64,000 bases of DNA, from positions 2,592,001 to 2,656,000 of the forward strand of contig CAVRAY010000001.1 of NCBI GenBank assembly GCA_963719225.1, read 5' to 3'. The stretch comes from Thermoanaerobaculia bacterium (GTDB lineage Bacteria; Acidobacteriota; Thermoanaerobaculia; UBA5066). Both the position numbers and the translations under genes were made by a program. Shown here one piece after another: positions 728 to 11,583 of the stretch. Each line of letters opens with the position of its first letter. Position 1 is the first letter of the stretch. The notes below the pieces were generated by a model. The model did no database searches, was not told the DNA's origin, and saw only the letters and a list, made by a program, of their open reading frames with translations.

Positions 728-2460
728 CTACCGGTCCAGCTCGCCGGCGATGATGTTCAGCAAGCCGAGCGTGGCGACGGCATCGGACACCATGCCGCCC
801 TTGATGATCTTCTCGAACGCCGCGAAGAGCGGGAAGCACGGCGGCCTGACTTTGATCCGGTACGGGAAACCGCTGCCGTCCGACACGAGCGAGAAACCCA
901 GCTCGCCGTTGCCGCCTTCCGTGAAGGAGTAGATTTCCCCCGGCGGCACCTTCACGCCCTCGAAGACGAGCTTGAAGTGGTAGATGAGCGCCTCCATTTC
1001 GTTGTAGACCATCTCCTTGGGCGGCAGGATGACTCGGTAGTCGTCCGAGTTGATCGGGCCCTTCGGGAACCGCGCGAGGAGCTGTTCGATGATCCGCATC
1101 GACTGCCGCATCTCCTCCATCCTCACGAGGTAGCGCGCGAAGTTGTCGCCGTCCGTCGAGATCGGGACGTCGAAGTCCACGTCGCCATACATCTCGTACG
1201 GCTTGTCCTTGCGGACGTCGTACGCGACGCCGGAAGCCCTCAGGCACGGCCCGGTGAAGCCCCAGGAGAGAGCCTGCTCCTTCGAGACGACGCCCACGCC
1301 GCGCAACCTGTTCCAGACGATCCTGTTCTTCGTGACGAGGCCGTCGACGTCGGCCATCCGGTCGCGGATCGTGGGCAGGAGCGACCGCGACCACTCGACG
1401 AAGTTGTCCGGCACGTCCTTCGCGAGCCCGCCGATGCGCGCGTACGAGGACGTCAGGCGCGCGCCGCAGCAGGCCTCGAGGAGGCCGTAGATCTCCTCGC
1501 GCGGCTGGTACGCGTACCAGTAGTTCGTGAGCGCGCCGATGTCGACGAGGTTCGCCGCGATGCAGACGAGATGGTCCATGATCCTCGAGAACTCGTTCAG
1601 CACCGTGCGCGCGGCCTTCGCGCGCGGCGGCACCTCGACGCCGAGCATCTGCTCGACGGCGCGCACGTAACCGTTGCCGTTGATCATGGGCGAGCAGTAG
1701 TTGAGCCGATCGGTGTACGGCACGACCTGCACCCACGTGTGCGTCTCGGACATCCCCTCGAAGCAGCGGTGCAGGTACCCGCACTCGGACTCGGCCGCCA
1801 CGATCTTCTCGCCGTCCACGCGCATCACGACGCGGAGCGTGCCGTGCGTCGCCGGGTGGGACGGCCCCATGTTCAGCGTCATCGTCTCGAACATCTCGGC
1901 CGGGTCGTCCGTCTTGGCGGCGAGCTCCGTCTGGAGGAGGTCTTCCTCGGTGCAGAGCCAGCGCTGCTTCTTGTCGTAGTCCTTGCGCAGCGCGTGGCCG
2001 ACGAACCCGTTGTGCGTGAGGAGCCGCTGGAGGTTCGGGTGGCCGTCGAACCTGATTCCCATGAGGTCCCAGGCTTCGCGCTCGAACCAGTTCGCGGCGG
2101 GCCAGATGCCGACGAGAGAGGGGGCGGCCGGCTCCTTCGCGGGCAGGTTCACGCGCAGCCTTAGGTGCTCGTTCCTCTTCGTCGAGTAGAGGATGTAGTT
2201 CGCCTGGAAGCGGGTCCCGTCCTTCGGAGCCTGATCGCCGGGAAGCTTCGAGCGGTCTACGGAGGCGAGATCGAGAAACAGGTCGTACGCGGTCGCGGGA
2301 TCGTCCCTCAGGAAGAGGGCGGCTTCCTTCAGCGTCGCGGCGTCCGTGACGAGCGTCGGGATGTCGAACGCCGGCCGCGGCTCCACCTGGACGCGGCCGC
2401 CGAGCTTCTGATCGAGGACCGGCCCGAACGAAATGGTAGATGGAGCGGCGAAAGTCGCCC

Positions 2461-2464
<4 letters not shown>
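728..2464 (-). CDS. nuoCD: NADH-quinone oxidoreductase fused subunit C/D
   Basis: NuoC motif [22 protein letters not shown], then NuoD motifs [18 protein letters not shown]-terminal GELDR. Start placed at ATG 2464, overlapping the nuoB stop (ATGA), not at 3190. Confidence 0.95.
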
Positions 2465-3183
<719 letters not shown>

Positions 3184-3256: not shown

Positions 3257-5980
3257 TCACGGAATGTCGGCGTCGATGGAGCTCCAATCGAACCTGATGA
3301 CGACTCCTCCGTTCGCAGGGGTCTCGAAATTCTGAATCTTGTCGGAGAGGGTCCAGACGCCCCCGATGATCGGAAGATCGAGATCCACTCCCTCTGATCC
3401 GCCGCTCAAGGGATACGGGCACGACTCCTCGTAACCCGGAAAGGCCTGTTTCTGGAAGAGGGCACCTGTCATGAAGAAGCCGGAAGCTCCCTGGAACCTG
3501 CCCAGGAGATTGTTGAGCTCGATGCGGTGCGGGACGCCCGTGACTGCCGTGATCATGCATCCCTGGGCCGCGCGACACGTCTCCAGGCTGCAGGCGACGA
3601 GGTTACCGGGAATCGGCAGGTCCGGATGGAACGAGAGGTCGTCCGAGAAGCGGAAGTTGTTTACCACGTACTCGGGGTCCGGGTTCTCTCTCGGCTGCGT
3701 GCTGACTTCGGGGTCGAAGCTCTTCAGGGAGACGTCGTTCGAGCCGCCGCAACGAATGTCCAGCGTGTAGCTCGCCCGGAATTTGAAATTCCGGCGGATG
3801 AGGTTGAAGCCGAACTTGACCAGCGCCGGACGGTTCGCCTTCGAGTTGACGGTCACGCTCGAAGCGACGGGCACGTAGACGTGGGCGATGCGAGAGGGAG
3901 CCGTGTAGTTGGTCTGGAGGCGGGTCGTGCTGTCGAGCGAGCCTGAGCTCGGCTTCGCCCACTTCACGGTGACGTTGTTGAGGACCGCTCCGACGAACTC
4001 GTACGTGAACTCCGAGCCGGCGCTCGAAGGCGTCGTGCGGACGTCCACCTGAAGGGGCAGCTTGCCCTTGGTCGGGAGCCACTCCGGCACTCTGACCGCG
4101 ATCGCCTGGTTCGCGCCGAGCCGGCTCGAGCTCGGTACCTTGAGCGCCGTCCGCGTCGTCCGCGCCGCGGCGGGCACGTCTGCGGGGCTCGTGCTACGAA
4201 CGCGAATGAGGAGGGAACGCGACGACGTGTCGATCTGTCCACCCGTCAACGCCGCCCAGCCCGCGCCCGCGAGCACGGCGACGGCGACTCCGTCGATCCC
4301 TTCGGCGGGCAGAGTCCCGGTTCCATAGCGAAGACTCAGGACCGCCGGTTTCGCGAAGGAGAGGCCGGCCGGCGAAAGGTCGTAGCCGGAGCCGAGGGCG
4401 CCCGGAGCCTCGTTCGTGGTAATCCCGATCGACATCGGCGTCGGCGCGCCGAGCGCTCCGGCCGGCACGCGCAGCGTCAGCGTTCCGTCGCTGGAGCGAA
4501 TGGCTCCGCCCGACGAACCGATCACGGCGGATTGCGGAATGTCCGCGGGCAACGGCATGACCGGCGTGACGACGGGGTCGCCCGAGGCGTTGTCGATGGA
4601 CGAGTCGAAGACGTCCACGCTCCCCGAGGTGACCTTGACCTCCAGCGTCGCGTCGTCGGGGATCGGTACGGTCGGAAAAAGGTCCTGGACGTTCGGCTGC
4701 GTCCAGCCGAAGACTCCGAGGGAGCCCGTCGTCGTCATCACCGTCGCCCCCGATGTGTTCCGGAGCGTCAGGAAATAGGCGCCCCCGTCCGGCCCCGCCG
4801 CGAAACCCACGTTCGTCCGGAACGTCGCACTCTGCCGGATGCCCGTAACGACGGCGCCCGCGTCCGCCGACATCAGGAACGAGAGCAGCGGCGTCGGCTT
4901 CTGCTGCGCACCATACGTCCCCGGCTTGACGCCGAAGGGATCCACGTTGCTGGTCCGGCAGAGGATCGCGAGGGGCAGGTCGCTCTCGAACCGCACGGCA
5001 CCGGCCGAGCCGACGGGCAGATCGAGAAGGGACCCCAGCACGTCGACGACGTCTAGGATCTTCCCGCCTCCGACCGTGAACGTGCGGGCGACCGGGCTCG
5101 GGTTCGAGGCGCCCGAGGCGTGGAAAGAGACCTTCACGAGCGCATCGTCCTCGGAAGGGTTGAAGAAGCGCCCATCCGTCCGGAAGAACGTGTTGTTCTT
5201 TCCGTTCGAGCGCGCGACGCCGTTGACGAGGACGTCTTGACGGCCGGCGGGTAGAGCTTCAAACGTGAAGAGCGAGCTGTCGCCCGTGACGTTGTCGACG
5301 ACGACGGAGTATGCGGCGGCCCTTCCGCGGACGACCTGGATCTCGGCGCGTGCGACCGCGACGGAGCCCGCGAAGCCCGCCCCGAACTGCTGAAAACCCG
5401 GCGTGTCGAGGCTGAATTCCTGCGAGCCCAGCGCGACGCCGTTCGCGTCGTAGACCGTGACCGCGGCCTCGCCACCCTCTTCATCCGGGAAAACGACCGC
5501 GACGTTCGTGCGGTAGCCGGAGGTCCCGTCCGCCGACTGGCTGATCCAGAGGCTGTCGGCCGATTCCCCGGCCGAGAGCAGCCGGTCGTCCGCGAAGACG
5601 GGCAGCGCGACTCCGTACGTGCCGGAAGCCGCCGTGTTGTACGTCCTCGCGCGGATGAGGAGCGGGACGTCGCTGGTGACCTGCGTCGCCCCGGCACCCT
5701 GGGCGCCCCACAGGCGGTCGAGGACGTTTCGATAGGCGACCGTCTCCCCCGCGCCCAGCGTGACCTGCCTTGGCGTCGTTCCGTTCGCCGGGACGAACGA
5801 GATCGTCGCCTGCGCCGCGACGCTCCCGGGATTCGTCACCGCGAGATCGGAGACGAACCGCGTGTTATTCAGCCCGCCGGCGTTGACCGTGCCGGGCACT
5901 GTCCACGTCGAGGCCTCCACGGGTATGCCCGCCAACAGAACGAAAAGAAGGGCCGCACTGAGGACCGCGATGCTCCGCAT
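3257..5980 (-). CDS. Secreted modular protein A: signal peptide, four-module scaffold, ZU5-like domain, variable Cys-containing C-terminus
   Basis: Signal peptide MRSIAVLSAALLFVLLAGIPVEA with GGAGG RBS; ZU5-like segment IGSSGGAIRSSDGTLTLRVPAGAL...YDLSPAGLSFAKPAVLSLRY; paralog of 6004..8718. Confidence 0.8.
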   Translation of the reverse strand: MRSIAVLSAALLFVLLAGIPVEASTWTVPGTVNAGGLNNTRFVSDLAVTNPGSVAAQATISFVPANGTTPRQVTLGAGETVAYRNVLDRLWGAQGAGATQVTSDVPLLIRARTYNTAASGTYGVALPVFADDRLLSAGESADSLWISQSADGTSGYRTNVAVVFPDEEGGEAAVTVYDANGVALGSQEFSLDTPGFQQFGAGFAGSVAVARAEIQVVRGRAAAYSVVVDNVTGDSSLFTFEALPAGRQDVLVNGVARSNGKNNTFFRTDGRFFNPSEDDALVKVSFHASGASNPSPVARTFTVGGGKILDVVDVLGSLLDLPVGSAGAVRFESDLPLAILCRTSNVDPFGVKPGTYGAQQKPTPLLSFLMSADAGAVVTGIRQSATFRTNVGFAAGPDGGAYFLTLRNTSGATVMTTTGSLGVFGWTQPNVQDLFPTVPIPDDATLEVKVTSGSVDVFDSSIDNASGDPVVTPVMPLPADIPQSAVIGSSGGAIRSSDGTLTLRVPAGALGAPTPMSIGITTNEAPGALGSGYDLSPAGLSFAKPAVLSLRYGTGTLPAEGIDGVAVAVLAGAGWAALTGGQIDTSSRSLLIRVRSTSPADVPAAARTTRTALKVPSSSRLGANQAIAVRVPEWLPTKGKLPLQVDVRTTPSSAGSEFTYEFVGAVLNNVTVKWAKPSSGSLDSTTRLQTNYTAPSRIAHVYVPVASSVTVNSKANRPALVKFGFNLIRRNFKFRASYTLDIRCGGSNDVSLKSFDPEVSTQPRENPDPEYVVNNFRFSDDLSFHPDLPIPGNLVACSLETCRAAQGCMITAVTGVPHRIELNNLLGRFQGASGFFMTGALFQKQAFPGYEESCPYPLSGGSEGVDLDLPIIGGVWTLSDKIQNFETPANGGVVIRFDWSSIDADIP

Positions 5981-8650
5981 GCTAAAAACCTCCCGGCTCA
6001 TCGTCAGGGAGCATCGACGGAATAGACCCGGTAGGAATAGAGCGAGTAGGGGTCGAGGATCGAATGTTCCGGGAACCATACGTTCTCCTGATCGATGGGC
6101 ACCGTTCGGGAAAAAGAGTCTGGCAACTTCACCGGTTCCACACGGAAATCCTCATAGGGAAACTTGCCCCCGGAAATCATGGCGCCCGGTAACTCGACGG
6201 TCCAACCGATCTCGAAAACGAACCCTCTCTTGCCGAAATCGTAGTTGGAAAATGGCGTCAATTCCACGGTTCCGTCAACGATTCCGTCAGTGTCCGGAGT
6301 CAGCGTCGTATACCACTTGCTCGCGTCGCCGACGGTGTAGGCGGGACAAAGCGCCCATACAGGTTTCTCGAGGCCATAAATCGCCCCGGTCAACGTGAGC
6401 GAGCCGACATCCAGGATCCTGAACCCGACTTTCTGGGAATTGTGCCATTTCACCGTGTAGGGATTGATCTGCTCCGCGCAGGGCGGGCTGTTGAACGTGA
6501 AGTCGGTCTCGATCACCCAGTTCTTTCGCACGATCTCCACGCTCGCGAGAACGTCAACTAAGGACTCAGCGCCACGGACGGACACTCGGAGGCTCGCAAT
6601 CGAGGAGGCGCTCGGGATCCGGGGGGGCGCGACAAATGTCGCGTTCAGCTGGTTCTTTGGATCCTGCACGATGTTGCCGAGGTCCGGGTGGTTCCATCGG
6701 ACTCTGAGGGCGCTCCGGTCCTCGGGTGAGAGCTTGATCTTGAAACCGGCGGGTTTGACACCGGCAGATGCGGGCCAAACGAGGCCGAGGAAGAGGCCCT
6801 CGGACCCGTTCGTCAGGACGGCCAGCTTCTCACGGCCGACGCTCAGGTTGTTGATCGGCAGGAGGATCGTCCCAGCATCCAGAGCGCCTCGGGCTCCGTA
6901 CGCTTCTAGAGACGAAGCCTGAGGGCTGGTCGACGCGATGGGCACCGAGAGCGTCCCCGCAGCCGGATCCACGCGGCCTCCCACCGCCACAAAAGTGCCG
7001 GAAGCGGTCCGGACCGCGAGGCTAACGCTCACGAGGCCGAGTGCGGGAGCGGGATCGCTCGCTCGGAAGACGAGGAGCGCACTCTTCGCGAGCGGGAGCG
7101 TAGACGGCGTCAGCGCATAGGCCGAGCCGAAAGCCTCCGCGTCCGCGACGGCTTCCGCCGTGAGCGCGACCGGAACGGCAGCCGAGAAAGCGCCGGCCGG
7201 GATCTTCAGTGTCAGTCGTCCGTCGGCGGACCTCACCGAGCCTCCCTGCGGCCCGATCGTGGCGGAGGAAGGGATGCTCACCGGAAGCGGCATGATGGGC
7301 GTGACGACCGGGTCGCCCGAGGCGTTGTCGATGGAGGAATCGAACACGTCGACGCTCCCGGACGTGACTCTCACCTGGAGCGTGGCGTCGTCGGGGATCG
7401 TCGAGCTGGGAAAGAGATCCTGGACGTTCGGCTGCGTCCAGCCGAAGGCTCCGAGCGAAGCGGTCGTCGCCGCGACCGTCGCGCCCGCCGCGCTCTTCAG
7501 CGTCAGCGCGTAATCGGCACCGTCCGGCCCCGCCGCGAAGCCCACGTTCGTCCGGAACGTCGCGTTCTGGCGGATGCCCGTGATGACGGCGCCCGCGTCC
7601 GCCGACATGAGCAACGAGAGGAGCGGTGTCGGTTTCTGCTGCGCGCCATACGTGCCCGCCTTGACTCCGAGAGGATCGACGTTGCTCGTCCGGCAGAGGA
7701 TCGCGACGGGCGCGTCGGTCTCGAACCGCACGGCGCCAGCCGAGCCGACCGGAAGGCCGAGGAGGGAGCCGAGGACGTCGACGACGTCGAGGATGCGCCC
7801 GGCTCCGACGGTGAATGAGCCCGAGGCGGGCGCCGGGTTCGAGGAGCCCGCGGCATGGAAGGAGACCTTTACCTCGGCATCTTCGTCGGTCGGGTTGAAG
7901 AAGCGGCCGTCCGTTCGGAAGAACGTCGAGTTGCGGCCGTTCGCGCGCGCGACTCCGTTCACGAGGACGTCCTGATATCCCGTCGGCAGGTCCTCGAACG
8001 TGAAGAGCGAGGAGTCTCCCGTCACGTTGTCGACGACGACGGAGTAAGCCGCAGCCCGGCCCCGCGTGACCTGCACCTCGGCGCGCGCGACCGACACGGC
8101 TCCCGCGAAGGCGCCCGCACCGAACTGCTGGAATCCCGCAGAGTCCAGCGCGAAGTCCTGCGACCCGACTTCGTTGCCGTCCGCGTCGTAGATCGTCACC
8201 GTCGCCGCGCCGCCGCCGACGTCCGGGAAGACGACGGCGACGTTCGTGCGGTAGCCGGAGCTTCCGTCGCCCGACTGGCTGATCCAGAGGCTGTCGGCCG
8301 GTTTGCCGGGCGAGAGCAGCCGGTCATCCGCAAAGACGGGCAGTGCCACGCCGTACGTGCCCGATGTCGCCGTGTTGTACGTCCGCGCCCGGATGAGGAG
8401 CGGCGCGTCGCTCGCGACCTGCGTCGCTCCGGCTCCCTGAGCGCTCCACAGGCGGTCGAGGACGTTGCGGTAGGCGACCGTCTCCCCGGCGTTGAGCGTG
8501 ATCTGAACGGGCGTCGTGCCGTTCGCCGGGACGAACGAGATCGTCGCGACGACCGGGACGTTCCCTGGATTTGTAACCGCGAGATCGGAAACGAACCGCG
8601 TGTTGTTGAGCCCGCCGGCGTTGACGGTGCCGGGGACCGTCCAGACGGAC
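4450..8650. repeat. Tandem duplication: ~1.45-kb similar segments at ~4450-5910 and ~7190-8650
   Basis: Shared DNA such as gacgttcggctgcgtccagccgaa and gactggctgatccagaggctgtcggccg in both copies; similarity falls off within the ZU5-like domain. Confidence 0.85.
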
Positions 8651-8718
8651 GCCACGGCCGACGTGCCCGTTGCGAATGCGACAAGAACGGCGGCCACGAA
8701 AGCGCGGCGAATCCGCAT
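6004..8718 (-). CDS. Secreted modular protein B, paralog of A with divergent C-terminus
   Basis: Signal peptide MRIRRAFVAAVLVAFATGTSAVA with GGAGG RBS; first ~500 aa nearly identical to protein A; ZU5-like IGPQGGSVRSADGRLTLKIPAGAF; visibly more AT-rich 3' end. Confidence 0.8.
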   Translation of the reverse strand: MRIRRAFVAAVLVAFATGTSAVASVWTVPGTVNAGGLNNTRFVSDLAVTNPGNVPVVATISFVPANGTTPVQITLNAGETVAYRNVLDRLWSAQGAGATQVASDAPLLIRARTYNTATSGTYGVALPVFADDRLLSPGKPADSLWISQSGDGSSGYRTNVAVVFPDVGGGAATVTIYDADGNEVGSQDFALDSAGFQQFGAGAFAGAVSVARAEVQVTRGRAAAYSVVVDNVTGDSSLFTFEDLPTGYQDVLVNGVARANGRNSTFFRTDGRFFNPTDEDAEVKVSFHAAGSSNPAPASGSFTVGAGRILDVVDVLGSLLGLPVGSAGAVRFETDAPVAILCRTSNVDPLGVKAGTYGAQQKPTPLLSLLMSADAGAVITGIRQNATFRTNVGFAAGPDGADYALTLKSAAGATVAATTASLGAFGWTQPNVQDLFPSSTIPDDATLQVRVTSGSVDVFDSSIDNASGDPVVTPIMPLPVSIPSSATIGPQGGSVRSADGRLTLKIPAGAFSAAVPVALTAEAVADAEAFGSAYALTPSTLPLAKSALLVFRASDPAPALGLVSVSLAVRTASGTFVAVGGRVDPAAGTLSVPIASTSPQASSLEAYGARGALDAGTILLPINNLSVGREKLAVLTNGSEGLFLGLVWPASAGVKPAGFKIKLSPEDRSALRVRWNHPDLGNIVQDPKNQLNATFVAPPRIPSASSIASLRVSVRGAESLVDVLASVEIVRKNWVIETDFTFNSPPCAEQINPYTVKWHNSQKVGFRILDVGSLTLTGAIYGLEKPVWALCPAYTVGDASKWYTTLTPDTDGIVDGTVELTPFSNYDFGKRGFVFEIGWTVELPGAMISGGKFPYEDFRVEPVKLPDSFSRTVPIDQENVWFPEHSILDPYSLYSYRVYSVDAP

Positions 8719-8787
8719 GGGACCTCCCGAGCGACTGCAAATCTGCTTCACCGGTAAGAAATGCGAGAATGGGTCTCGATTCACCTC

Positions 8788-9366
8788 ATGGGAGATCCGG
8801 GCGAGGTCACGCGTCTTCTCCGCGAATGGAGCTCGGGGAACCAGGAAGCGCTCGAAAAGCTCCTCCCGCTCGTGTACGACGAGCTACGCCGACAGGCCGG
8901 CGGCTTCTTCCTCAGGGAACGTGGCGACCACACGCTTCAACCTACGGCGCTCGTGCACGAGGCGTATCTGAGGCTCGTCGGCCAGAACGCGATCGACTGG
9001 AAGGATCGGACCCATTTCTTCGGAATCGCGGGCCGGACGATGCGGCAGGTGCTCGTCGACCACGCGCGGGCTCGCAACGCCGAAAAGCGCGGCGGAGGCC
9101 GGGTCCAGGTCGGGCTGGACGTCGCCGACGCGGCCGGCGCCGCGGCGCCGGTCCGAGCGATGGATCTTCTCGACCTCGACCGGGCTCTTTCGCGCCTCGC
9201 CGCGTTCGACGAGCGGCAGGCGCGGCTCGCGGAGCTTCGCCTCTTCGCCGGTCTGACGATCGAGGAATCGGCCGAGGCGCTCCAGATCTCGCACGCCACC
9301 GTGAGTCGAGAGTGGCGGCACGCGGAAGCGTGGCTCCAGCGCGAGATGAGCGAGCCCGCCCCTTGA
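8788..9366 (+). CDS. ECF sigma-70 factor of the kinase-associated type (TIGR02999-like)
   Basis: GEVTRLL, LLPLVYDELRR, HTLQPTALVHEAYLRL, TVSREWRHAEAWL; start could be 8761. Confidence 0.92.
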   Translation: MGDPGEVTRLLREWSSGNQEALEKLLPLVYDELRRQAGGFFLRERGDHTLQPTALVHEAYLRLVGQNAIDWKDRTHFFGIAGRTMRQVLVDHARARNAEKRGGGRVQVGLDVADAAGAAAPVRAMDLLDLDRALSRLAAFDERQARLAELRLFAGLTIEESAEALQISHATVSREWRHAEAWLQREMSEPAP

Positions 9367-11583
9367 CGCCCCAGCTTTTCCAGGCCGCCAAGGCGGTTTA
9401 TCTCGAGGCTCTCGAAATCCCCGGAGCCGAAAGGGCCGCGTTCGTCGCGGCTTCGTGCGGCGCGGACGCGGGCCTCAGGCGGGAAGTGGAGGAGCTCCTC
9501 GGTCTCGAACCGACAGGGCGCCTCGACGCCCTGATCCGGGAGGAGGCGGCGCTCCTCGAGAGGGACGACGGCACGCCTCAGGCGCCCCCCGCTCTACCGG
9601 CCCGCATCGGGCCGTACGAGATCCTGCGCGAGCTCGGTCGCGGCGGCATGGGGACCGTCTATCTCGCGATCCAGCGAGGTCCCGGCTTCGAGCGAAAAGT
9701 TGCTCTGAAGGTGATCCGTGGCGGGCTCGATTCCGCCTTCGTCGTCGCGCGCTTCCGCGCCGAGCAGCGAATCCTCTCGGCGCTCGAGCACCCGAACATC
9801 GCGCGCTTGTACGACGGCGGAACGACCGGGGACGGACTCCCGTGGTTCGCGATGGAGTACGTCGAGGGAGAGCACCTGATCGAATGGGCGGACCGCCGTG
9901 GCCTCGCGCGCGAAGCGCGCCTTCGGCTCTTCCTCGACGTCTGCGCCGCCGTCCAGTTTGCTCATCAGAACTTCGTCGTGCACCGCGACCTCAAGCCGGG
10001 AAACGTCCTCGTCTCGAAAGGCGGCGTCCCCAAGCTCCTGGACTTCGGCCTCGCGAAGCTTCTGGACGTACCGTCGGAGGAGCGCACCGCGACGATGCAC
10101 CGCATTCTCACTCCCGAGTACGCGAGCCCCGAGCAGGTGCGCGGTGACCCGATCACGACCGCGAGCGACGTCTATTCGCTCGGAGTCGTTCTCTTCCGTC
10201 TGCTCACGGGCCGACTTCCGTACCGGCTCCAGGGCCGGTCCGTCGCGGAGATCTCGCACGCCGTGCTCGAGCAACGTCCGATCTCGGAGAAGGCGTCTCT
10301 CGGAGCCGATCTCGACACGATCCTCGAGACTGCTCTCGCGAAAGAGCCCCTTCGGCGCTACGCAACGGCCGAGCGGCTCGCGGACGATATCCGTCGCGCG
10401 CTGGAGCACCGTCCCGTGCTCGCCCGCGGCGACACTATCTCCTACCGCGCCGGAAGGTTCTTCCGGCGTCATTGGCTCTCTCTCGCGGCGGCGGCACTCG
10501 TTTTCCTTTCGCTCGCGGGAGGCTCGGGTGTGGCGCTTTGGCAGGCAAGCCGCGCGCGCGTGAACGAGCGCGCCGCGCTGCGGCGCTTCGAGCAGGTGCG
10601 CGCTCTCGCGAAGACCGTTCTCTTCGATCTCCACGACCAGATCGAGACGCTGCCGGGCTCGACGAAGGCGCGCGCGACGCTCGTCTCGACCTCTCTCCGC
10701 TATCTCGATTCGCTCGCGAAGGAGGCCGGACCGGATCCTACCCTCGTGCGCGAGGTCGCCGCCGGCTATGCGCGCCTCGCCGACATCCAGGGCGGCCGGA
10801 ATGCGAGCCTCGGGGATCGGGAGGGGTCGCTCCACAGCCGGCGGGCGGCGATCGCGCTCCTCGAAAGCCTCGTCACACCCCAGCGGTCAGCCGCGGAAGA
10901 CCTCGAGTCGCTCGCGGCGCAGCTGGATGCCGTGGGTCGCCTGCTCGGGTCGTCGCATCCGGACGCGCCCGCGGCCCACGCGCGGGCGCTCGAAATTCGA
11001 ACGGCACTCCTCGAAAAGGCCCCGTCTTCACCCGCGTTCCAACGGGGGCTCGCGCGGAGCCTGGATGCCTCTGCGAGCTATCACGTCGATCGGAAGGAGT
11101 TTGGCGAGGCACTCGCGCTCCGGCGCCGCGAGCACGAGCTTTTTGCGGGCCTCGCCGCCGGTCCTTCAGCCGCCTCGTCCGATCGGCGGAACCTCGCCCT
11201 GTCTGACAAGTTGCTCGGCGCAGCCCTCCACCAGGCGGGAGACCTCGCAGGCGCGCGGCCGCTCTACGAAGAGGCCGTTGCGCTCGACGAGAGCCCGTGT
11301 CGCAGAAAATTCCAAATCTTCGGAAGCCCGGATGGACCTTTCGTTCAGCGTCGGCTCGCTCGGATCCCTGGCGGTCGACTCGGGAGACCTTCCCCTCGGG
11401 CGCGCGTTGTACACGCGCGCTCTCGCCCTGCGCCAGGAGGTGGCGTCGAGCGACCCCGCGAACGCGTGGGCGCGACGCGCCGTCGCGCGGGCGCACGAGC
11501 GACTCGCAGACATCGAGCGGCGCCTCGGTCACCCCAAGGCAGCGGAGGCTCACCGCCTCAAGGCCCGGCCGCCGGCCGGCTGA
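9363..11583 (+). CDS. Membrane Ser/Thr protein kinase with C-terminal TPR-like region; +1 frameshift near 11292
   Basis: TTG overlaps sigma stop; LGRGGMGTVY, VALK, HRDLKPGN, DFGLAK, TPEYASPE; TM helix LSLAAAALVFLSLAGGSGVALW; helical repeats continue in another frame (ARVAENSKSSEARMDLSFS...) to TGA 11583. Confidence 0.88.

Follow-up and report, generated by a model that had tools for sequence, protein, structure and literature searches.

The locus described here is a cluster of two tandem genes for secreted proteins, A and B, next to a divergent operon for an extracytoplasmic function (ECF) sigma factor and a Ser/Thr kinase that is predicted to control them. It lies in the genome of a Thermoanaerobaculia bacterium (GenBank assembly GCA_963719225.1; hereafter G000), within a window of 64,000 nucleotides (contig CAVRAY010000001.1, positions 2,592,001 to 2,656,000). 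B is the upstream and A the downstream gene on the minus strand, separated by 23 bp without an open reading frame (ORF), and the ATG of B lies 69 bp from that of the sigma factor gene (8788). Both proteins begin with a signal-peptide-like N-terminus (read by eye). Their C-terminal tips contain five (A) and two (B) Cys residues and have a GC content of 0.61 and 0.56, respectively; that of the scaffolds is 0.69. These observations bear out the original prediction, made from the sequence alone, of two tandem secreted paralogs of about 905 aa marked by the motifs IRRNFKF (A) and VRKNWVI (B), with Cys-bearing tips, a more AT-rich tip in B, no gene in the 23-bp gap, and a distance of 69 bp to the divergent ECF gene. 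The features are as follows.

3257..5980, minus strand: paralog A, 907 aa, second gene of the predicted operon, without a promoter motif of its own
3260..3799, minus strand: tip of A (residues 728-907), all-beta, five Cys, the hypervariable domain of the family; predicted local distance difference test score (pLDDT) of the model, 81
3800..4186, minus strand: flexible Ala/Arg-rich linker and immunoglobulin (Ig)-like domain of A, by alignment to the model of B (Ig matches at Z 8-9)
4187..4555, minus strand: ZU5 domain of A, without the HFS motif; the breakpoint between scaffold and C-terminal half falls at about residues 495-505 (about 4470-4500)
4556..5908, minus strand: scaffold of A, four ASRAH/TM1070-like beta-sandwich repeats
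6004..8718, minus strand: paralog B, 904 aa, first gene of the predicted operon; model pLDDT 89.5, predicted template modeling score (pTM) 0.85
6007-6531, 6532-6924, 6925-7290 and 7291-8646, minus strand: tip, linker plus Ig-like domain, ZU5 domain and scaffold of B
8761..8788, minus strand: predicted ECF43-type promoter for B and A, with -35 TGAG, 18 nt, -10 TCGCAT and 42 nt to the ATG of B
8788..9366, plus strand: ECF sigma factor (TIGR02999/PF07638), ECF43-like, with QPTA in sigma2.2; T53 is the predicted phosphorylation site
9363..11583, plus strand: Hanks-type Ser/Thr kinase with one transmembrane stretch and a C-terminal tetratricopeptide repeat (TPR) region; the frame changes at about 11290-11295

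The divergence between A and B is not uniform. Protein identity is 82% in the scaffold (the first ~475 residues) and falls to 41% in ZU5, then to 17% and 19% in the Ig region and tip, respectively, which amounts to a single step near residue 500 followed by a gradient. When A is compared with A-type and B-type homologues, it is nearly equally close to both up to about residue 500; beyond this point, the values are 71% versus 38%. The breakpoint between the two paralogs is the start of ZU5 and not the tip. Uniform divergence, the outcome that the original prediction had set against itself, was not what we found. Its sharp divergence within ZU5 holds for the step but not for what follows, which is gradual, and its description of the first ~500 aa as nearly identical was too strong, as 94 of the 251 four-fold degenerate sites (37%) differ. 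Together with a longest exact DNA match of 30 nt, these differences indicate that the duplication of A and B, or their last homogenization, is old. Recent gene conversion between the two genes was ruled out on the same figures.

After the signal peptide, both proteins consist of four ASRAH/TM1070-like beta-sandwiches and a ZU5 domain without HFS, followed by an Ig-like domain and an all-beta tip with Cys residues; mature B was modeled in full with confidence. The scaffold, with its four repeats across about 450 aa, matched TM1070 (1nc7) at Z 12.9 (root mean square deviation (rmsd) 3.4, 112 of 116 residues aligned; Foldseek probability 1.0) and ASRT (2ii9) at Z 10.3; this match was made on model residues 220-343, and the remaining repeats were assigned via internal homology. 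The two residues diagnostic of ASRAH, a Trp in strand 1 and an Asn that ends strand 2, were both seen by eye in repeat 1; of the two, repeat 2 has just the Trp, repeat 3 just the Asn, and repeat 4 neither. A Pfam search of the scaffold repeat and an NCBIfam search of A and B returned no match. Secreted proteins are known to carry the ASRAH fold in dyads or tetrads, and binding of sugar or peptidoglycan was predicted for them (PMC2739507). In G000, 27 ORFs combine an ASRAH-like scaffold domain with partners of various kinds, one of them carboxylesterase-like (C1:509070-512294, by eye), and this expansion is likely a lineage-specific surface-sorting module.

The ZU5-like domain of the original prediction proved to be real: Pfam alone stayed below the cut-off (E 0.015), but the model matched the ankyrin ZU5 (3kbu) at Z 10.6 (rmsd 2.8, 123 residues aligned). 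No such match was obtained for the tip. Foldseek searches against PDB and viral libraries gave nothing at E<=0.001, a tip profile gave nothing under E 0.5 among PDB sequences, and the ESM Atlas returned unnamed clusters only, at 0.83 or lower and with low recognition. Pfam detected no toxin family among 45 tips and one weak Big_9 match; a Lectin_like match, below the cut-off, covered the tip of one scaffold-less relative. The best hit in a wide structural comparison (VIA) reached Z 6.8 (rmsd 6.5, 128 residues aligned), and its top 11 rows were all secretins (Z 5.4-6.8). It should be stressed that failed fold searches do not make the fold of the tip new.

A survey of 301 genomes of the class, G000 included, revealed the family in 16, of which 11 belong to one Thermoanaerobaculia genus, that of the window. 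The contigs with related loci are titled Thermoanaerobaculia or Acidobacteriota. Removal of 16 near-duplicates from 85 complete members, collected from loci and protein hits, left a set of 69. The median identity within the family is 70% for the scaffold, 47% for ZU5, 21% for the Ig-like domain, and 17% for the tip (63 aligned). An alignment of 45 tips, with a mean identity of 16%, nevertheless shows one Cys that is invariant and R, W, F, C, and P residues that are nearly so, which indicates that the tips are one homologous, fast-evolving and highly diverged domain and not interchangeable unrelated effectors. In close pairs, the ratio of nonsynonymous to synonymous substitution rates (dN/dS) was about 0.12-0.19 for the scaffold, about 0.4-0.8 for the Ig-like domain, and about 0.25-1.0 for the tip.

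The scaffold tree conflicts with the C-terminal tree. An approximately unbiased (AU) test on 25 of the 62 scaffold rows rejected the A-type C-terminal halves as one clade of the scaffold tree (log-likelihood difference 278, p-AU 9e-5), and the scaffold of A groups with B-type scaffolds (96% in the Shimodaira-Hasegawa-like approximate likelihood ratio test). These results indicate that C-terminal halves moved between scaffolds or that neighboring scaffolds were homogenized, and that the exchanged unit is the whole ZU5-Ig-tip half, in exchanges that are old. The variable tip of the original prediction thus stands as far as variability is concerned, and C-terminal halves were reshuffled, except that the unit begins at ZU5. 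Its interchangeable effector tips, taken in the sense of polymorphic toxins, are not supported, since the 45 aligned tips form one domain and neither a recent exchange between A and B nor orphan cassettes were found. A second recombination point, between Ig and tip, is possible in one pair of loci (L113 and L115), in which the Ig-like domains are 32% and the tips 72% identical. At another locus (L108:4002-10721), the family gene is the end of a 2240-codon open frame; this is probably a chance read-through from the upstream gene, as the motif described below and the start are at the usual place.

G000 itself holds four family members, arranged as two tandem pairs. The second pair (L001:5351-16241; C1:1527350-1538240) has a TGCA-N17-GCGCAT site before each gene and is followed by a gene with IPT/TIG and Vgb-like propeller domains that is interrupted by an in-frame stop. 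The outer part of its convergent ECF43-associated kinase resembles the TolB-like/TPR type (by eye).

HFS or HFT is the self-cleavage motif of PIDD-type ZU5 domains. In the stretch examined at the ZU5 end, it was present in none of the 69 scaffold-fused members (one matches elsewhere), and it was kept in all nine scaffold-less ZU5 relatives that were fetched (P0107, P0109, P0110, P0114, P0117, P0118, P0121, P0126, and P0101). Where these relatives have HF[ST], the scaffold-fused proteins carry an S/T-rich stretch and a disordered Ala/Arg-rich linker. This comparison indicates that the ZU5 lineage lost the motif upon fusion to the ASRAH-like scaffold, and with a disordered linker in its place, the proteins of the family are probably not self-releasing by ZU5 cleavage. 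The cleavage motif has also been written as CxH (PMC3482391). The ZU5-Ig-tip module was also found by the tip profile search on other N-termini, including lipoprotein-like leaders (by eye), a propeller, and a dockerin.

These data bear on the possibility that A and B are polymorphic interbacterial toxins whose interchangeable toxin tips are freed by ZU5 autocleavage. The layout with a constant N-terminus and a variable C-terminus, the presence of ZU5, and the recombination that exchanged C-terminal halves are all shared with the polymorphic toxins of PMC3482391, although the exchange is old here and its unit is ZU5-Ig-tip. Those systems carry unrelated toxin domains, whereas here a single tip family without a toxin Pfam match is found, with a ZU5 that is in mid-protein and lacks HFS in all 69 members. 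The other hallmarks, immunity genes, orphan cassettes, and RHS repeats, were not found: across 51 genes checked, no small, co-directional gene suited to an immunity role lay downstream, the ORFs with a tip and no scaffold (9 of 69) look like contig-end or frameshift pieces, and the tip profile finds only four matches in G000 (E<=1e-20), all within full genes. The toxin explanation is largely refuted on the genomic criteria of PMC3482391, and we consider it highly improbable. The preference in the original prediction for an adhesin or receptor over a toxin is therefore upheld, as a binding role is favored.

The sigma factor scored 217 bits against TIGR02999 (cut-off 126) and 193 bits against PF07638, Sigma70_ECF (cut-off 21). 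At residues 51-54, QPTA replaces the canonical DAED of sigma2.2. This fits the ECF43 rule, under which DAED is replaced by an uncharged motif with a phosphorylated Thr (QTTA consensus; PMC13147305), features that are also described in PMC8999054 and in the supplement of PMC7826278. By this signature, the protein can be classified as ECF43-like; in the available portion of the PMC7826278 supplement, the published ECF43 group lists Proteobacteria only. The kinase gene is in the +1 position and overlaps the sigma factor gene. Its product has a kinase domain (Pkinase, E 1e-45), one transmembrane stretch at residue 371, and weak TPR matches under the cut-off. The frame change occurs at a short C run, and orthologues elsewhere are single ORFs of about 750-820 codons from stop to stop; it is likely a long-read assembly error. 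Of the operon for an ECF factor and a membrane Ser/Thr kinase with TPRs that had been predicted originally, the sigma factor, the kinase, and the transmembrane stretch were confirmed, but the kinase is not one ORF here. G000 encodes eight TIGR02999 ECF paralogs, and 69 of its ORFs match the kinase domain.

The linkage between the family and such ECF-kinase pairs recurs. An ECF gene was present in 15 of the 25 informative genome loci versus none of six scaffold-only controls, and in 11 of the 12 informative metagenome loci, which include some duplicates, versus none of eight controls; 8 genome and 25 metagenome loci were too short and were set aside. Family and ECF genes occur in both divergent and convergent layouts, and the second tandem pair of G000 also adjoins an ECF-kinase pair. 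Five of the eight TIGR02999 ECF genes in G000 have a scaffold-domain gene within 5 kb, a count that was equalled in 1 of 20,000 random placements. A sample of 40 ECF43 loci from the genus contained 12 with a scaffold gene and four with a member of the A/B family. The original prediction had named a lack of ECF-kinase linkage as evidence against itself; a linkage exists, and it is neither universal nor exclusive. At three loci (L061, L072, and L124), the family genes adjoin a different Ser/Thr kinase (37-39% identical to that of the window), with no ECF gene in the locus. Furthermore, nuoB lies directly downstream of the family gene in several genomes (window 728-3183; loci L052, L053, and L132), and the nuoA-like ORF of G000 is far away (C1:911514).

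Upstream of the family genes we identified a promoter-like motif, TGAG-N18 or TG[ACT]A-N17 followed by [TG]CGCAT. After 13 duplicate regions were dropped, a slightly looser pattern was found in 30 of the 58 non-redundant upstream regions, namely in 22 of the 27 ECF-linked ones and in 8 of the 31 others; random windows gave a rate of 1.2% and shuffles one of 2.5%. Among the five linked genes without the motif, three are second genes of tandem pairs, A included, as expected for an operon. The motif also precedes 12 convergent genes, even though no ECF start lies upstream of these. The -35 element and the spacer follow the ECF clade: TGAG-N18 was found in 12 of the 13 genes beside the clade with VSREW in the sigma-4 helix, and TG[ACT]A-N17 in all seven beside the SRDY clade. 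A genome-wide search with the relaxed motif gave 195 matches, nine of them in promoter position (about 2 expected); five of these nine are within 11 kb of an ECF43 gene and five are 42-44 nt from an ATG. This relaxed pattern was then kept unchanged and gave a site at 11 of 40 further ECF loci compared with 7 of 300 control windows. When the four loci seen earlier are left out, sites remain at 7 of 36, mostly ahead of unrelated signal-peptide genes. The control by ECF and kinase proposed in the original prediction now has genomic evidence in the linkage, the motif, its covariation with the clade, and its out-of-sample recurrence.

In the window, the predicted -35 element (within 8761-8788) overlaps the ECF start codon on the opposite strand. 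In divergent loci, the -10 element overlaps the reverse of another element, TGnGAGAAT, which precedes most such ECF genes whether the layout is divergent or convergent. In most homologues, this element sits ~20 nt ahead of the ECF gene, for which no clear ribosome-binding site is seen. Such an overlap between promoters could allow negative feedback; in a check for autoregulation, the forward motif preceded none of 26 ECF starts. A scaffold-domain secreted gene of G000 far from any ECF43 gene (C1:1913723-1916377) has TGAG-N18-GCGCTT 42 nt before its start and is a candidate distant regulon member. A sub-clade (L130, L132, and L081) has another conserved upstream motif, TGGCAAC...TCTCAT, possibly for another sigma factor. 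The published ECF43 promoter prediction, GTC (-35) and CAG (-10), comes from Proteobacteria (PMC7826278 supplement), and we found no validated promoter for phosphorylation-activated sigma factors in the open-access literature; the original EcfK and EcfP papers may give promoters.

Several of these points weigh against a regulatory link and a binding function, and some of them favor another explanation, in which A and B are ordinary lineage-specific paralogs with a relaxed C-terminus, the ECF-kinase pair is a neighbor through inherited synteny, and the motif is left over from the promoter and start codon of the ECF gene itself. Ten of the 25 informative genome loci have no ECF gene, one genome with a family gene (G136) has no TIGR02999 match above the cut-off, and the linkage counts overstate independence because kin share synteny. 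The motif is absent from 23 of the 31 unlinked genes, was defined on the same sequences in which it was counted, and had its last bases relaxed once after two G000 sites. Its covariation with the ECF clade represents one clade split and not repeated events, it differs from the predicted proteobacterial GTC/CAG (the host here is an acidobacterium), and the overlaps with the ECF start and TGnGAGAAT give the sites of divergent loci a second explanation. The kinase is frameshifted in this assembly. The old duplication and the restriction of the family mostly to one genus also suit ordinary paralogs, as do the dN/dS values, which are mostly below 1 in Ig and tip; as they are not clearly above 1, relaxed constraint would fit as well. 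Binding by the tip and glycan binding by the scaffold are themselves inferences, and the sugar role of ASRAH is a prediction (PMC2739507). On the other side, the 12 convergent genes retain the motif, as do unrelated secreted genes that adjoin other ECF43 paralogs, the linkage persists through orientation flips, divergence is non-uniform, and the scaffold and C-terminal trees disagree. We regard the explanation by ordinary paralogs as unlikely.

The tight linkage in both orientations would also be expected if the secreted proteins were inputs of the system, with the tip recognizing a ligand and signaling to the outer TPR region of the kinase, so that the sigma factor induces its own sensor in a feedback loop. 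A constant base with a variable tip would suit a receptor, and ZU5 is present in signaling proteins (PMC8195603). However, kinases that are 70-75% identical to that of the window adjoin very different tip types, and at 28 of the 40 sampled ECF43 loci there is no scaffold gene and the secreted genes are of other kinds, some of them preceded by this motif, a pattern that fits locally encoded targets. Taken together, we find the feedback sensor quite unlikely.

A third alternative is that A and B act as induced effectors in defence against protists or phages, with an active, perhaps oligomerizing or membrane-damaging tip that is deployed on contact with a predator. There is an ECF43 precedent in EcfK-PknS, which induces a type VI secretion system (T6SS) against amoebae (PMC13147305), fast evolution is typical of conflict, and no immunity gene would be needed if the target were a eukaryote. 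The secretin rows of the VIA comparison point in the same direction, but their Z values are within the range of chance arrangements (rmsd 4-7 Å). Moreover, the tip alignment has no conserved residues of a catalytic type, and PADLOC gave no match for the four G000 paralogs. We judge such an effector to be improbable.

Our preferred interpretation is that A and B belong to a family of ECF/kinase-switched secreted proteins with a conserved base and a fast-evolving, binding outer half. The outer TPR region of the kinase would sense an outside signal, and the kinase would phosphorylate T53 in QPTA, which would allow the sigma factor to bind RNA polymerase, by analogy with the ECF43 factors EcfK and EcfP. 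On the genomic evidence, the sigma factor would then recognize TGAG-N18-TCGCAT ahead of B and transcribe B and then A from 8788-8761; that it transcribes these genes after activation by the kinase is, in our view, a likely step. Each exported protein is modeled as an ASRAH-like tetrad followed by the HFS-less ZU5, the Ig-like domain, and the Cys-bearing beta tip. The tetrad probably anchors the protein, presumably on envelope glycan. The outer half is probably not self-cleaved and may bind an external partner or shield against it, as an adhesin, lectin, or decoy; this binding role is somewhat favored. The variety stems from fast change of Ig and tip and from old ZU5-Ig-tip swaps between scaffolds, rather than from unrelated effectors being exchanged as cassettes. 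For the interpretation as a whole, we see the chances as evenly balanced.

Regulation of this kind is already known, as are ASRAH domains and ZU5-containing surface proteins in bacteria. The pairs of ECF43 factor and Hanks kinase described in Xanthomonas citri (EcfK-PknS) and Vibrio parahaemolyticus (EcfP-PknT) resemble the one described here in their Sigma70_ECF domain, an S/T motif in place of DAED, a kinase in the +1 position with one transmembrane stretch and outer TPRs, and the lack of a visible anti-sigma gene. They differ in that they are from Proteobacteria, control a T6SS or polymyxin regulon, and have a published GTC/CAG promoter, whereas the present pair is from Acidobacteriota, in a genome with eight paralogs, and has adjacent secreted proteins as predicted targets and a different predicted motif. 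The scaffold resembles the ASRAH superfamily (PMC2739507) in fold and, with four tandem copies in a secreted protein, its amidase-linked family in particular, but it is fused to ZU5-Ig-tip instead of an amidase; the H/C ligand signature of the intracellular ASRAH family is not evident in A and B. Bacterial ZU5 surface proteins and lipoproteins (PMC3482391) share the ZU5-Ig-tip module on other N-termini and differ from the A/B family at the ZU5 end, as described above. For the combination of these elements, the promoter motif, the tip domain, and the ZU5 lineage without HFS, no description was found in the open-access literature, and subscription papers or supplements (e.g., Additional File 1 of PMC3482391) may hold parts; the available portion of PMC8195603 does not describe the A/B family.

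Few phosphorylation-activated sigma factors have been characterized, and this locus gives a concrete promoter consensus that follows the sigma clade and predicts local secreted targets. A and B represent an apparently undescribed secreted family in Acidobacteriota, which adds a large lineage-specific expansion to the known ASRAH tetrads and highlights a hypervariable beta domain, the tip, without an assigned fold. As the tips are homologous and the swaps old, the locus is not as striking as a polymorphic effector system would be. A bolder view, which we hold as doubtful, is that Thermoanaerobaculia maintain a bank of phosphorylation-switched ECF43 cassettes with their own promoter variants, which would induce a repertoire of envelope-tethered proteins with disulfide-held tips, a new and antibody-like domain for variable recognition, reshuffled as ZU5-Ig-tip units and directed against predators, phages, or neighbors, and possibly feeding back on the kinase. 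If true, this would be an inducible bacterial variable-receptor system.

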